From the NCBI GenBank assembly GCA_964601515.1, contig CAZRNU010000002.1:2755-66754 (forward strand): a stretch of 64,000 nt of DNA. The letters run 5' to 3'. This document shows positions 16,626 through 30,867 of the stretch, in pieces (positions within the stretch are counted from its first letter, which is position 1; each line of letters opens with the position of its first letter). Made by a program: the position numbers and the translations under genes. The notes below the pieces were generated by a model. The model had not been told where the DNA came from. It did not search any database and was given only the letters and a program-made list of their open reading frames with translations. The stretch comes from an uncultured Bacteroidales bacterium (lineage in GTDB: Bacteria > Bacteroidota > Bacteroidia > Bacteroidales > UBA7960).

Positions 16626-18167
16626 CTATCTGTGTTCTTTTCTTAACAAATCGTTTACTGATTTAACAGGATTAAATGTAATAAGCGGCACTTCAACAAA
16701 TATCGTTATCCATTTAGCCATTGCACCATTCCATAAACCCGGAAGTTCTAGTGCCTTTAGGTCTTTACCATTTTTTGATTTATGACTTATAAAACAAGTG
16801 TCATTATCAATAAACTGCCTTAAATCAAACTGTTCTCCATTCCAACCTCTAATTGCACAAACAAGATCAACAGGGTTAAAATGTGTAGCTTTTTTAAATA
16901 TTAATTCTTGTCCCGGGTCTTTCATATTAACTTGCGACGACTCCACAATTTGCAATGAAGCAGAATTGCTTTTATGATCAAAAACCCAGAATGGACCACC
17001 GCCCGGCTCACCTTCATTCTTAACCATTCCGCACACTCTAACAGGCCTGTCGAGAATATTCGGAAGAATTTCAATTCCTTCGGAAAAACTTTCAGGGATA
17101 AGAGAAGGGTCTATATTCAATTTATCAATAACGAATTCTCTAACATTATGGTAATCTTCTTTAATGAATTCATTTTCATAAATTTTTCTAAGAATTTCAT
17201 GAATTCTAACTTGTAAATCAATTAGCAAACCGCCTATTACTTTTTTATAAATAATGGTTGGTTCTTTTAGGGAATCAGGAACAACATTATCAATATTTTT
17301 TATAAAAACAAAATCACCATCCAGATCGTTAAGGTTTTCTATCAAAGCGCCGTGCCCTCCCGGTCTAAAATGCAAGCTATTATCAGACTCGCGAAACGGA
17401 TTATTATCCATATCAACAGCAATAGTATCCGTTGAAGTTTTTTGGAGAGAAAAGCTTATCTCATAGTTCACTTCATATTGCTTCCCATATAATGGGACTA
17501 ACTCATCTGTTAGTCTTGCAAAATGCTCTCTGTGGTCAGGAGATACTGTAAAATGAATATGAACTGTTCCATCCTGCATTCTGGCGTAATTTGCGCCTTC
17601 TACCAAATGTTCTTCAATCGGAGTCCTAACCAATCCCTTATCAGCATAATTATGAAACTTAAGCAATCCTTTAGGCAAAGAAGCGTAATCCAGTCCTGTT
17701 TCAGTTAGCAACAATTCAAGTATTAGCTTATAATTTTTAGAATGATAGCATTGCTCAGGATCAATTGCTTTGGCTTCCATGACTTTTGCAAGGTCGCTCC
17801 ACAAAGCCAAACTACGTAACTTTGAAAAGAATGCATTGGCCTCACAATTTTGTTTGCACAATTCATCGGGGCTCACTCCGGCATTAAGCTTATCAAGCCA
17901 ATTAAAGGCATCCTTAAACATCCTAGTTGCAGCACCACTTGCAGGAACAAACTTCACAACTGTGTAACTCGGGCTATTTTTTTCATAAATTTCAATCCAC
18001 CTTAAAAGTGATTTTTCATCAAGTCTTATAATTCCATCACCAACAATAGCAGGGCGGTCAAGTTTAATAGGAGAAATTCCTTTCTTAAATATTTCTAATT
18101 GGGCTTCAACTGATTCTATGGTGTTACCCATTGCAGAAATCTGCTCTATATCTTTTTCAGTAAACAT
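16626..18167 (-). CDS. DUF4301 family protein
   Basis: KFVPASGAATRMFK, HFTVSPDH, FRPGGHGALIENLN, GEPGGGPFW, ELPGLWNGAMA. Confidence 0.92.
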   Translation of the reverse strand: MFTEKDIEQISAMGNTIESVEAQLEIFKKGISPIKLDRPAIVGDGIIRLDEKSLLRWIEIYEKNSPSYTVVKFVPASGAATRMFKDAFNWLDKLNAGVSPDELCKQNCEANAFFSKLRSLALWSDLAKVMEAKAIDPEQCYHSKNYKLILELLLTETGLDYASLPKGLLKFHNYADKGLVRTPIEEHLVEGANYARMQDGTVHIHFTVSPDHREHFARLTDELVPLYGKQYEVNYEISFSLQKTSTDTIAVDMDNNPFRESDNSLHFRPGGHGALIENLNDLDGDFVFIKNIDNVVPDSLKEPTIIYKKVIGGLLIDLQVRIHEILRKIYENEFIKEDYHNVREFVIDKLNIDPSLIPESFSEGIEILPNILDRPVRVCGMVKNEGEPGGGPFWVFDHKSNSASLQIVESSQVNMKDPGQELIFKKATHFNPVDLVCAIRGWNGEQFDLRQFIDNDTCFISHKSKNGKDLKALELPGLWNGAMAKWITIFVEVPLITFNPVKSVNDLLRKEHR

Positions 18168-18189: not shown

Positions 18190-19275
18190 TTACTGATTTG
18201 TATTTATCGGTTTTGCAAGAAACCTTTCCTGAAATAATCTGATGTAATGATTGCTATTAGCTATCAAGTCTTGCAATAACTTTTTACACGCTTCCTTTTT
18301 GAAATCATCATCAAACATCAAGAATGACAAAAGAATTTCATTATTTTTCAGGCTAAAGGTAAGATTTTTTAAAACATAATTCTGTTGTAGAACAAATTCA
18401 TAAAACATAGCTATATTATCATCCGGCAGCAAACATATTGAAATATCAAAAACAACAAATTTAGTTTTATTTGAATACACTATTTTCACAATACCGCCTT
18501 GTTGTTCCAACTCCCATAAGAATGGTCCTGACCTTGATGTCACTGCATCAAATCCACACTCCTCGATAACACCTTCTATTTTCTTTACTATTCCTTCAGG
18601 GATATAAGCAGGTGGATCGTACTCATCGAGGCTGAATTTATGCCCACAATTACAACAATAACCATTATTTAATTCTTCTATAAGCTGTACCCTTCGGCAA
18701 GATGAACAACGTATTGAATTTTGTTCCTGATAGCTGTAATATAAATCCAAGTTTTCACTAATGTAATAAAATGGCAAAGCAAAACCTATATTTTCAGCCT
18801 CTTTAATTATCATAGTATTGAGTCCTACAACTTCAGCATTCGCATTGAATAATGGACCGCCACTATTACCCGGATTTAGAGGAGCATCAATCTGGATATA
18901 TTTAATTCCATTGTATTCTCGATCAACCTTTGAAATTATTCCTGAAGTTGATGTGTAATTCAAACTCATTGGATGTCCAATAGCCAAAACACTTTCACCT
19001 TCATTTACAGGGCCTTCAGACAAGTCAGGAAATTCTGCTTCAAACCCTTTAGGCTTTTCAAGAAAAGCTATATCTTGCAGCATGTCGACATATAAAACTC
19101 TAACAGCTTTCTTTTTTATATTCCTACCTGAAATTACCACTTCTTTATTTCCCTTAACAACATGAAAATTAGTTATAATTAGATCCCACCCGTTCAGAAT
19201 AAAACCACTTCCGAAGCTAAAGGGTGTGGTTATCTGAACAATAGCATCCTTATATCGGTCAATTATTTTATTCAT
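18190..19275 (-). CDS. Trypsin-like (S1C) serine protease with Zn-ribbon and C-terminal YbjN-like domain, no PDZ
   Basis: Triad ITNFHVV / DIAF / GNSGGP; CSSC...CCNCG; C-terminal FVLQQNYVLKNLTFSL resembling YbjN/CesT-like chaperones; no signal peptide. Confidence 0.85.
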   Translation of the reverse strand: MNKIIDRYKDAIVQITTPFSFGSGFILNGWDLIITNFHVVKGNKEVVISGRNIKKKAVRVLYVDMLQDIAFLEKPKGFEAEFPDLSEGPVNEGESVLAIGHPMSLNYTSTSGIISKVDREYNGIKYIQIDAPLNPGNSGGPLFNANAEVVGLNTMIIKEAENIGFALPFYYISENLDLYYSYQEQNSIRCSSCRRVQLIEELNNGYCCNCGHKFSLDEYDPPAYIPEGIVKKIEGVIEECGFDAVTSRSGPFLWELEQQGGIVKIVYSNKTKFVVFDISICLLPDDNIAMFYEFVLQQNYVLKNLTFSLKNNEILLSFLMFDDDFKKEACKKLLQDLIANSNHYIRLFQERFLAKPINTNQ

Positions 19276-20594
19276 ATTTCAGGCTGAGTAAAATTCAAAT
19301 ATGTTATTTCATTTAACAAGGACTTGCAAAATAATGGCAAACTATTAAAATTTATATTTACACTAATGATTCCTAAATGAGGGTACTCTTTTCTTTCGTC
19401 ATTTATTATTCTTTTTATTTCATTTTCAATTTCAATTTTATTTAATGAGTTTAATTTCTCATCATAAAAATTGTTCACCAAACCCATCTCACGAAAGAAT
19501 TCCGGATGTAATACATTATAAATAAGCGTTATCAACTTTTTTGTTGCCGGGTAAACACCAAAATAGTACATACAATATCCTATAATGTATTCATTTAAGC
19601 ATGCAGTATAGGATTTATCCGAAGGTCTTGAGGTAAGCTTTGAATTCTCATCCAACTGCTTTAATATGAATTCATAAACTTGTTTGTGACTCGAGGCTTC
19701 AATTATTGAAAAAGTGTATTTATGCTTTACAAAACTATTTATCAAATCAGCAGAAGGAAGCTTCAAAACTTCATTCAAGTATACTTTAATAGAGTCGAGA
19801 CGTGCAGTTGATGAAAGGCTTTTTTGATTATATGAAATAAGGCTTTTATTCAATAATTGCTTAACTTCTCCTTCAGGTACTAATAAAAAATCTATTCTAA
19901 ACAACAATGTAAGCAGATAATACGAGATAATAACCAAATCTTTTTCCTGATCCATCTTCTCTATAATTGCTAAAGTATCAGAAATCCATAATTTCAAATA
20001 TTTAATTTTTACATTAGAAAACTTTTCAGTGGTTAATGGCGCATCAATATTAACATTTAAATCGAACTCCCTTATAAATGATTCGCTATCTGATGCAGAA
20101 TTCATTGCAACTTCTTTTAGTACGAAAAATAGTTTCTCAGGAGATGTCTCGCTAATTTTCGAATTTGATTTTAGAATAATTTCATTATTATTAATTGCAT
20201 AACTGCTATAATGAAAATTGTAATTTTTTGATAATATATATCTGAACAAAGAAGGACTAATTTGCTCATATCTGCCAATTCTGGCATAAATATTAATTTC
20301 ATCATCAATAATTTCAAGATGAACTTTTTGTATTCCCTGAAATATTTTATACTCTTTTTGATTGTTAAATTGGCTTGAAACTACATTTTGCTGAGTGGAA
20401 TCATTAAGATAATCCATCAGAACATCGACACTCTCTTTATATTTACCCTCATTATAAAGCCTAAGAGATTCATTGTATTTTCTATTTAAAGATGGTGACT
20501 TATTGCATGATAAGTATCTTCCAAATTCCACATCCGGCAATATCACTTTATCATCTGTAGAACTTTTCTTGAAAAACTTATTAAATAAAGCCAT
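19272..20594 (-). CDS. Conserved hypothetical protein with probable YbjN-like domain
   Basis: 440-aa ORF overlapping the protease start by 4 bp (ATGA coupling); EFGRY, IFQG, LFRYILSKNYNFHYSSYAI segment. Domain call by eye. Confidence 0.7.
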   Translation of the reverse strand: MALFNKFFKKSSTDDKVILPDVEFGRYLSCNKSPSLNRKYNESLRLYNEGKYKESVDVLMDYLNDSTQQNVVSSQFNNQKEYKIFQGIQKVHLEIIDDEINIYARIGRYEQISPSLFRYILSKNYNFHYSSYAINNNEIILKSNSKISETSPEKLFFVLKEVAMNSASDSESFIREFDLNVNIDAPLTTEKFSNVKIKYLKLWISDTLAIIEKMDQEKDLVIISYYLLTLLFRIDFLLVPEGEVKQLLNKSLISYNQKSLSSTARLDSIKVYLNEVLKLPSADLINSFVKHKYTFSIIEASSHKQVYEFILKQLDENSKLTSRPSDKSYTACLNEYIIGYCMYYFGVYPATKKLITLIYNVLHPEFFREMGLVNNFYDEKLNSLNKIEIENEIKRIINDERKEYPHLGIISVNINFNSLPLFCKSLLNEITYLNFTQPEI

Positions 20595-20633
20595 ATGATG
20601 AAATAAAAAGACCTTTAATTCGGTTGGGCTATT

Positions 20634-20750
20634 AAAAACCAGTTCCAGACAACACCGTGAATCCTAATTTATTGTTGAAAAACCTTTCAGCCTTTCTTAC
20701 ACCGTCATTCCAGGATTGAGTTGAATGGTGCTGCCTGGTTAATGGTTTTT
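20634..20750 (-). ncRNA. Candidate unassigned rod-shaped structured RNA or leader (~117 nt)
   Basis: Nested helices AAAAACCA/UGGUUUUU, CCAG/CUGG, GCAGCACC/GGUGUUGU, AAUCCUGG/UUAGGAUU, GAAAGGCU-GAAA-GGUUUUUC. G-U pairs form only on the - strand. Confidence 0.6.
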
Positions 20751-20767
20751 GGAAAAAAAGGATGATT

Positions 20768-20775
20768 CAAAGGTA
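20768..20775 (-). promoter_or_regulatory. -7 promoter box (TACCTTTG) upstream of the candidate RNA
   Basis: caaaggta on the + strand. Confidence 0.6.
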
Positions 20776-21012
20776 TAATATTTTGTTTAAATAAAAAAAA
20801 TGAAAAATAGAAAATATGTTTTGATGAAGATTATAAATTTACAAAACCTCAATAATATTTTTTTCTGACATAACCAAAAAATACAGATATAAAAAAAATA
20901 TTTTTTTTATATCACTTTGAGGAGATTTTTATTTACTTTTCGTATTGTAAAATAAGTCTTATGCTTAAAAAGATTTTTATTTCTGCTTTTTAAATAACGA
21001 AAAATTCATCAT

Positions 21013-21534
21013 ATGCGAATAAAAAGAATTCAAAACGAAGCAAATCCAGGTGATACTTTATTAGCTGCCGACCTTAGTTTGATGGACTCCTTAATAGCCA
21101 AATTCAAAGGAAAAAAGGGCAATCTAATCCCGTTGCTGCAAGGAACACAATCTTTATATGGATATATTCCAAAAGAAGCATTTCATAAACTCAATAAAGA
21201 GGCAGGCCTGGAGCTTAACGAAATGTATGGCGTTGCTACTTTTTACGCTCAATTCAGGCTTAGTCCTGTTGGAAAACACATAATCAGAATGTGTCATGGA
21301 ACAGCATGCCATGTACAAAATGTTACAGCCATTACAGAAGCATTACTAGATCATCTTGAAATAAAAGATGGAGAAACTACTACTGACAGGCTTTTCACTG
21401 TTGAAACTGTTGCATGCTTGGGCTGCTGTTCTCTTGCGCCGGTTATGATGATTGGTGAAGAAACATATGGCAAACTTACTCCAACGGAAGCAACAAAAAT
21501 TATTAAGGAAATAAAACGCAACGAATTAGGTTAA
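21013..21534 (+). CDS. NuoE/HydC-like [2Fe-2S] subunit (StnA-like)
   Basis: YGVATFYAQF, CHGTACHV, VACLGCCSLAP. Confidence 0.9.
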   Translation: MRIKRIQNEANPGDTLLAADLSLMDSLIAKFKGKKGNLIPLLQGTQSLYGYIPKEAFHKLNKEAGLELNEMYGVATFYAQFRLSPVGKHIIRMCHGTACHVQNVTAITEALLDHLEIKDGETTTDRLFTVETVACLGCCSLAPVMMIGEETYGKLTPTEATKIIKEIKRNELG

Positions 21535-30579: not shown

Positions 30580-30674
30580 TTTTAGAAATTTAAAATTAGT
30601 AATCAGATTTTAATAGTAAACGTTTATATATGTTTATTTGTTCGAGATTGAATGTCAGTTATTTAAATAAAAAA

Positions 30675-30867
30675 ACCCGCATAATTCAATGAGGTTAGAT
30701 GAAACCCCAAATATACATGGTTAGGGCAACCGGGGCTTTTCGAACTTCCTGCGATGCAGAAGCAAACTATCGGCAAGCCGATATTCAGGCCTGTTCTTGA
30801 AATCCCGAGTTGTGACCGTTTAGTTTATAGCGTTGAGTTTCAAAACGTATCTTGAATTGATGCGGGT
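30675..30867 (-). ncRNA. ssrS: 6S RNA
   Basis: 193 nt between zapA and rny, a typical 6S position; closing stem ACCCGCAU-CAAUUCAA / UUGAAUU-AUGCGGGU followed by a U-run. Confidence 0.8.

Follow-up and report, generated by a model that had tools for sequence, protein, structure and literature searches.

A conserved, previously undescribed small non-coding RNA element precedes a YbjN-like/HtrA-like protease gene block in a small clade of uncultured Bacteroidota

Post-transcriptional control in Bacteroidota is poorly understood; to our knowledge the phylum lacks both Hfq and ProQ, and we know of few regulatory RNAs beyond those of gut Bacteroides and of none from the uncultured clade considered here, which is known from metagenomes of activated sludge and the subsurface. 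Among rod-like RNAs, 6S RNA is recognised by a large conserved central bubble flanked by long helices, ~150–200 nt in all. The closest described systems within the phylum are the canonical intergenic sRNAs, for example GibS of Bacteroides thetaiotaomicron, which combine a sigma-ABfr promoter (−7 consensus TAnnTTTG) with an intrinsic terminator, the accepted signature of high-confidence canonical intergenic sRNAs in Bacteroides (PMC7366714).

An intergenic element on the minus strand of a 64,000-nt stretch of DNA from an uncultured Bacteroidales bacterium (the window, meaning the whole stretch analysed) resembles these sRNAs in its TAnnTTTG box, its length of ~85–140 nt, a highly conserved single-stranded 5′ stretch, and a hairpin with trailing U residues at the 3′ end (PMC7366714). 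Unlike the GibS-type sRNAs, to which it bears no known sequence relationship, it has almost invariant helix sequences, is nearly all hairpin, and yielded no target within the window. A second resemblance is to 5′ UTR-derived sRNAs and attenuators, since in the window and two related loci (L001 and L002) the sole consensus promoter precedes it and the opening gene of an operon follows it, with a hairpin and U run ahead of the start codon; unlike attenuators, however, it features no leader peptide, conserved antiterminator alternative or ligand-binding core, and in two lineages other genes with promoters of their own intervene. The rod-like outline and internal loops recall 6S RNA (6S-Flavo, RF01685; Bacteroidales-1, RF01693), but the element is too short, matches no 6S model and does not conserve its loops. 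Likewise, a ~115-nt hairpin with a GNRA tetraloop and asymmetric loops is reminiscent of bacterial small SRP RNA (4.5S), although the apical domain that is essential in SRP RNA corresponds to the part that appears dispensable here.

The features of the window version, with helices taken from the minimum free energy (MFE) fold, are as follows:

20775–20768, minus strand: −7 promoter box TACCTTTG (TAnnTTTG type), read from the sequence
20751–20763, minus strand: predicted start A20763 ± 2, placed from the position of the box, and unpaired pyrimidine-rich 5′ end AUCCUUUUUUUCC (13 nt)
20750–20743 with 20641–20634, minus strand: helix H1, 8 bp
20743–20750, minus strand: 5′ strand of H1, AAAAACCA, partner 20634–20641, with one G-U variant in L005
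20739–20742, minus strand: 5′ side of the H1/H2 internal loop (4 × 3 nt), UUAA inside a conserved AUUAA, the same in five of six versions (AUUGA in L040)
20738–20727 with 20656–20645, minus strand: helix H2, 12 bp
20727–20738, minus strand: 5′ strand of H2, CCAGGCAGCACC, paired in all six sequences
20657–20726, minus strand: apical domain, delimited by comparison of the six versions, with H3 to H5, the GAAA loop (20685–20688), a repeated GGUGU motif and TAAATTAG (20664–20671)
20717–20710 with 20667–20660, minus strand: helix H3, 8 bp, separated from H2 by an internal loop of 9 × 3 nt
within the apical domain, minus strand: helix H4, 3 bp, separated from H3 by an internal loop of 8 × 5 nt
within the apical domain, minus strand: helix H5, 8 bp, closed by the GAAA tetraloop at 20688–20685
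20645–20656, minus strand: 3′ strand of H2, GGUGUUGUCUGG, the same in five of six versions; GAUG... in L005, compensated on the opposite strand
20642–20644, minus strand: 3′ side of the H1/H2 internal loop, AAC, variable in sequence and length across versions
20634–20641, minus strand: 3′ strand of H1, UGG and a U5 run (terminator-like U tract), from fold and sequence
20595–20633, minus strand: 39-nt spacer from the U run to the start codon, without a consensus −7 box in the box scan

The hairpin, 117 nt in length (20750–20634), is paired end to end. A preliminary description, made from the sequence of the window, had reported a −7 box, a set of nested helices and an orientation fixed by G-U pairs, and all three are borne out: the box matches TAnnTTTG, the minus-strand RNA folds as described at z-scores of about −3 to −3.5 (MFE −38.1 kcal/mol, z −2.92, with 0 of 200 shuffles as good, for the 142-nt segment; −38.6 kcal/mol, z −3.55, for the RNA from its predicted start), and the plus strand folds at chance (z −0.35, 60 of 200 shuffles as good). 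This asymmetry arises because ~7 of the pairs are G-U, and the chance-level fold of the plus strand therefore supports the minus-strand orientation as correct. The G+C content of the RNA is 38.5%, against 17.5% in the remaining intergenic region, and the core pattern occurs once in the whole window. No leader peptide was found in the RNA, the sole AUG of which opens a frame of three codons and is missing in L002.

Relatives were gathered from the contigs of homologues of the 440-aa protein encoded downstream and of close homologues of a divergent NuoE-like gene, the element being picked out by nhmmer and a covariance model (R1), with a genome scan as one more route. Six distinct versions were obtained, all from related uncultured Bacteroidota:

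Window version, 20631–20763, minus strand: reference
L001 (= L008 = L011), L011 5667–5800, minus strand: "Bacteroidetes bacterium CROMO_A_117", neighbouring protein 86% identical
L002, 3825–3961, plus strand: neighbouring protein 52% identical
L040, 124–261, minus strand: close to L002
L003, 1750–1833, plus strand: neighbouring protein 48% identical
L005 (= L030), L005 687–827, plus strand: neighbouring protein 44% identical

In every case the element occurs once, ahead of the same gene block and in the same orientation as that block, and a single contig carries it in the source metagenome. A metagenome scan with the invariant 3′ block returned the L001 contig alone; scanning genomes for a loop-anchored pattern produced 20 matches, of which ~17 were expected by chance on our own estimate and one was real (L011, identical in sequence to L001). 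The covariance model found no further or divergent copy over the window and all protein-derived loci, the element was neither found at more distant orthologous operons (L006 and L034–L036, protein 30–35% identical) nor seen on the short L004 contig, and nothing similar appeared in collections of plasmids, phages and viral contigs. For L001, the gene caller annotates a 99-aa ORF (2474–2773) that covers the 5′ half of the RNA as well as the intergenic region; since no counterpart of at least 40 aa is present in the window, this is most likely a false gene call.

Comparison with Rfam 15 by cmscan gave no match at the gathering score over the whole 64-kb window, in keeping with the preliminary view that the RNA belongs to no known family (SRP, 6S or riboswitch), and relaxed searches gave nothing relevant at E ≤ 10 over 20300–21100 and four related loci produced no match at E ≤ 1; models of SRP RNA, 6S RNA, riboswitches and named Bacteroidetes motifs are therefore excluded at that sensitivity. 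The proposal of a structured RNA, specific to one strand and preceded by its own promoter, likewise stands; all six versions share both structure and promoter. We regard the element as real and conserved, as a small non-coding RNA element not described before, and as confined to a small clade of uncultured Bacteroidota.

Common to all six versions are the −7 box, the unpaired 5′ end, H1 (8 bp), H2 (12 bp) and the U run. The consensus of H1 pairs AAA(A/G)ACCA with UGGUUUU, that of the 5′ side of the loop is AUU(A/G)A, and that of H2 pairs CC(A/G)G(G/A)CA(G/A)CA(C/U)C with G(G/A)UGUUGUCUGG. This core is kept where the neighbouring protein is merely 44–52% identical, whereas the apical domain and the sequence after the U run are not. 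The structure in the window exceeds chance and the same basal architecture is found in the five other lineages (z −3.7 to −7.4), giving a range of z −3.5 to −7.4 for the base folded by all six. Pairing in H2 is complete (72 of 72 cells, 12 pairs in six sequences), with changes limited to three A-U/G-U alternations, varying on the 5′ strand, and one compensatory C-G to U-A exchange; no uncompensated change occurs on its 3′ strand, where a pair would be lost with most single transitions. In H1, the two or three unpaired cells reflect an alignment shift in L005 and a U-to-C change that ends the run of L040. The covariation analysis of orthologous upstream regions that had been suggested thus yields intact H2 pairing, but a statistically weak signal. 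The observed score is matched by 64 of 500 column shuffles, the alignment having too few sequences (six, with one compensatory pair) of too little divergence. The case for an RNA structure rests on its stable folding in one version after another, on the difference between the two strands and on its conservation while the surroundings evolve fast. The near-invariance of both helix strands exceeds the needs of a terminator and hints at a possible further partner; for the 5′ end, duplex energies against the 49 start regions of the window were no better than those of shuffled seeds, 172 of 200 of which equalled them.

The apical half of the rod is, on comparison of the six sequences, a lineage-specific and apparently dispensable insertion. 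The window-type domain is common to the window, L001, L002 and L040 only, with a few compensatory changes in its hairpin, and is replaced by a 21-nt loop in L003 and by 77 nt of unrelated AT-rich sequence in L005. A competing CACC...GGUG helix, put forward earlier as the basis of a switch, does exist as a pairing, but is 17–20 kcal/mol weaker than the rod and present only in the four window-type versions, so that a conserved switch is not supported. A direct repeat inside the RNA, GGAUUCACGGUGU/GGAAUGACGGUGU in minus-strand reading, lies at 20652–20664 and 20699–20711, alongside a second AUCCU-like motif; the sequence suggests that the window-type apical domain may have arisen by partial internal duplication of basal sequences.

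As in canonical sRNAs, the element has its own promoter directly upstream, with the −7 box kept as TAYCTTTG in six of six versions at a fixed spacing of 3–4 nt to AUCC; in the window, TACCTTTG is the only perfect −7 box on the minus strand of the intergenic region. The 5′ end, AUCCUUUUUU(U)CC, is invariant in the six except for one U fewer in L002 and L040, and is unpaired in the MFE fold of each. At the other end, a hairpin followed by U4–U8 is found in all six, and alignable sequence ends directly after the U run (4–8 nt across versions); a simple terminator scan calls no terminator at the window or L003. The stable helix stops 6 nt short of the U run, the gap being spanned by a 3-bp CCA/UGG extension alone. 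The U runs of L003 and L005 (7–8) are longer than their 5-A partner, which fits a terminator tail rather than plain pairing. Run length is 4–6 where the operon follows directly and 7–8 where other genes intervene, a relation to operon adjacency suggested by two to three independent lineages per group. Termination at the hairpin, as judged from its anatomy, would probably be inefficient, with an internal loop close to the base of the stem. A search of RNA sequencing runs turned up none that contains the locus.

The downstream gene block comprises, in the window:

19272–20594, minus strand: 440-aa protein with an N-terminal YbjN/type III chaperone-like fold and a helical remainder (AlphaFold model, pLDDT 83)
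18190–19275, minus strand: HtrA/DegP-like serine protease, 361 aa, overlapping the preceding gene by 4 nt
16626–18167, minus strand: DUF4301 protein, always next in the block (family match and synteny)

This trio is syntenic at every locus, and its earlier labelling as a YbjN-protease operon is upheld by the YbjN-like N-terminal fold of the 440-aa protein and the HtrA-like protease that follows. The 440-aa protein gave no Pfam or NCBIfam match, and its family is very rare (11 clusters among 5.8 billion proteins). The protease has an HtrA/DegP-like catalytic domain at aa 20–176 and no PDZ match; the absence of an evident N-terminal signal peptide suggests a cytoplasmic enzyme. A CxxC...CxxC zinc-ribbon-like stretch follows its catalytic domain, and then a C-terminal domain without family assignment.

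Spacing between RNA and block differs among lineages. The 440-aa gene begins ~40–45 nt past the U run in the window, L001, L002 and L040; in the first three, which the box scan covered, the RNA's own box is the sole perfect −7 box on that strand. In L003 (2017–3878) and L005 (961–2884), two genes intervene, 130–180 nt past the RNA and behind perfect −7 boxes of their own: one has a PKD domain, and the other, of 244/245 aa, weakly matches an outer-membrane beta-barrel. Both are absent behind the RNA in the window's lineage, which indicates an insertion or deletion exactly at that point. On the other side, the neighbour is a divergent NuoE-like hydrogenase-type operon at most loci and a peptidase M28 gene in L003, so that the RNA stays linked to the protease side. 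A perfect 28-nt AT palindrome, GATATAAAAAAAAT/ATTTTTTTTATATC, also lies at 20886–20913, in the half of the window's intergenic region nearer the NuoE-like gene, and an A-run-TAT-T-run is kept at the matching position in L001, L002, L040 and L005; the palindrome may act as an operator, or as part of a promoter, for the hydrogenase-type operon.

The best explanation, held with roughly even confidence, is that of a small RNA, ~85–140 nt in length, ending at its own, probably leaky, terminator-like hairpin. Transcription would start at about A20763, 4–5 nt past the consensus −7 box, and the 13-nt unpaired 5′ end would precede a long hairpin, the conserved core of which is formed by the two basal helices (8 and 12 bp) split by an internal loop; the 3′ arm enters the U tract, an arrangement typical of intrinsic terminators. 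Transcripts would mostly end near 20634, giving an RNA of ~130 nt (~85 nt in the shortest relative), and read-through of the rather weak terminator (U5, internal loop near the stem base) would transcribe the YbjN-like/HtrA-like protease/DUF4301 block. With the next gene ~40 nt past the U tract and no consensus promoter between, such leak-through probably transcribes the block, and in the window's lineage the RNA probably doubles passively as the operon's 5′ leader. The perfect −7 boxes between RNA and next gene in L003 and L005 make the RNA look stand-alone there. The previously proposed role as a cis-leader of the operon is plausible in the window's lineage; in these two relatives, however, other genes come between RNA and operon. 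The conserved 5′ end may have a trans-acting role.

The main rival to the small-RNA reading is a dedicated, actively regulated attenuator, in which termination would be modulated, for example by a protein or RNA recognising the invariant 5′ 30 nt and internal loop, and the protease block switched on under some stress. We consider it unlikely, though a serious contender: linkage and co-orientation with the same block in six of six lineages, despite the different other-side neighbour in L003, speak for it, as do the lack of another consensus promoter for the operon in the window, L001 and L002, the invariance of the 5′ end, H1 and H2 beyond structural need, and the less stable alternative fold of the window-type versions. 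That alternative pairing is, however, not family-wide and yields to a rod stabler by 17–20 kcal/mol, the variable apical domain leaves no conserved multi-helix core for ligand binding, the element is not found at more distant orthologous operons, and in L003 and L005 the PKD-domain and beta-barrel-like genes with their own boxes separate RNA and protease block. A structure in the 5′ UTR that does not terminate, acting as an mRNA stabiliser or processing site with a U run that merely pairs with the A run, would account for the negative terminator scans, the interruption of the L040 U run after four U and the A5/U5 pairing as part of H1. Protective 5′ hairpins are not known to be preceded by a 13-nt single-stranded 5′ end, though, and U runs of 7–8 that outlast the A run, together with the separate downstream promoters of L003 and L005, render this reading very unlikely.

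The idea of a second 6S-like RNA polymerase decoy, raised in the preliminary description on account of the rod shape with internal loops and the near-promoter box TAAATTAG at a loop edge, is largely refuted by the comparative data and is next to negligible. The box is indeed present at 20671–20664 but is not conserved, for it lies, with the bubbles and the GAAA hairpin, in the dispensable apical domain that is missing from L003 and replaced in L005, and the loops beyond the H1/H2 junction are accordingly absent in the one and non-homologous in the other; the RNA is 117 nt against ~180 nt for 6S, and no 6S model (RF00013, RF01685, RF01693) matches even at E ≤ 10. A separate 6S candidate does exist elsewhere, as had been stated, at 30669–30861 (minus strand), but below the Rfam threshold (6S-Flavo RF01685, 35.6 bits, E 0.001, gathering score 85; Bacteroidales-1 RF01693, 21 bits), and is probably a divergent 6S RNA. 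Conserved terminal inverted arms around a variable interior resemble a miniature inverted-repeat transposable element (MITE), and a DNA-level element of this kind, or a protein-binding inverted repeat, would make the RNA fold incidental; it is extremely unlikely, given that MITEs occur in many dispersed copies and this element in one in the window, the 19 loci searched and the source metagenome (one contig), that it is syntenic across divergent lineages and without counterpart among plasmids, phages and viral contigs, that its arms are complementary only with G-U and hence mismatched as DNA and on the other strand, and that the conserved block takes in the promoter and unpaired 5′ end outside the arms.

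Several further candidates were considered and set aside. SRP RNA finds no Rfam SRP model match, and its apical domain would be dispensable here; a riboswitch or other ligand-sensing leader has no Rfam match, only two stacked basal helices conserved and an alternative pairing in four versions only. UTP- or CTP-sensing through the U7 run would lack a leader peptide, a run at the very start of the transcript and an operon with a known pyrimidine link, and in a U-A-U triple helix of the 5′ U7, A5 and 3′ U run both U runs would be antiparallel to the A run. A CsrA-type sponge was rejected on GGA motifs too few and buried in helices.

Returning to the small-RNA reading, the element offers a compact and well-delimited candidate, with promoter, 13-nt free 5′ end, conserved hairpin and U run, and the naturally occurring versions with a deleted or replaced apical domain constitute a test set for the function of the core. 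A bolder and distinctly unlikely proposal is that the 5′ 30 nt, internal loop and 12-bp helix may form a docking site for a novel factor, in which case the element would represent either a new class of leader for factor-dependent antitermination or a small RNA that sequesters a protein, dedicated to the cytoplasmic YbjN-like/HtrA-like protease module. At present, the element is a further candidate for a lineage-specific small RNA or leader; should the YbjN-like/HtrA-like protease block be gated by its terminator, a gene module without known function would be tied to an RNA element.
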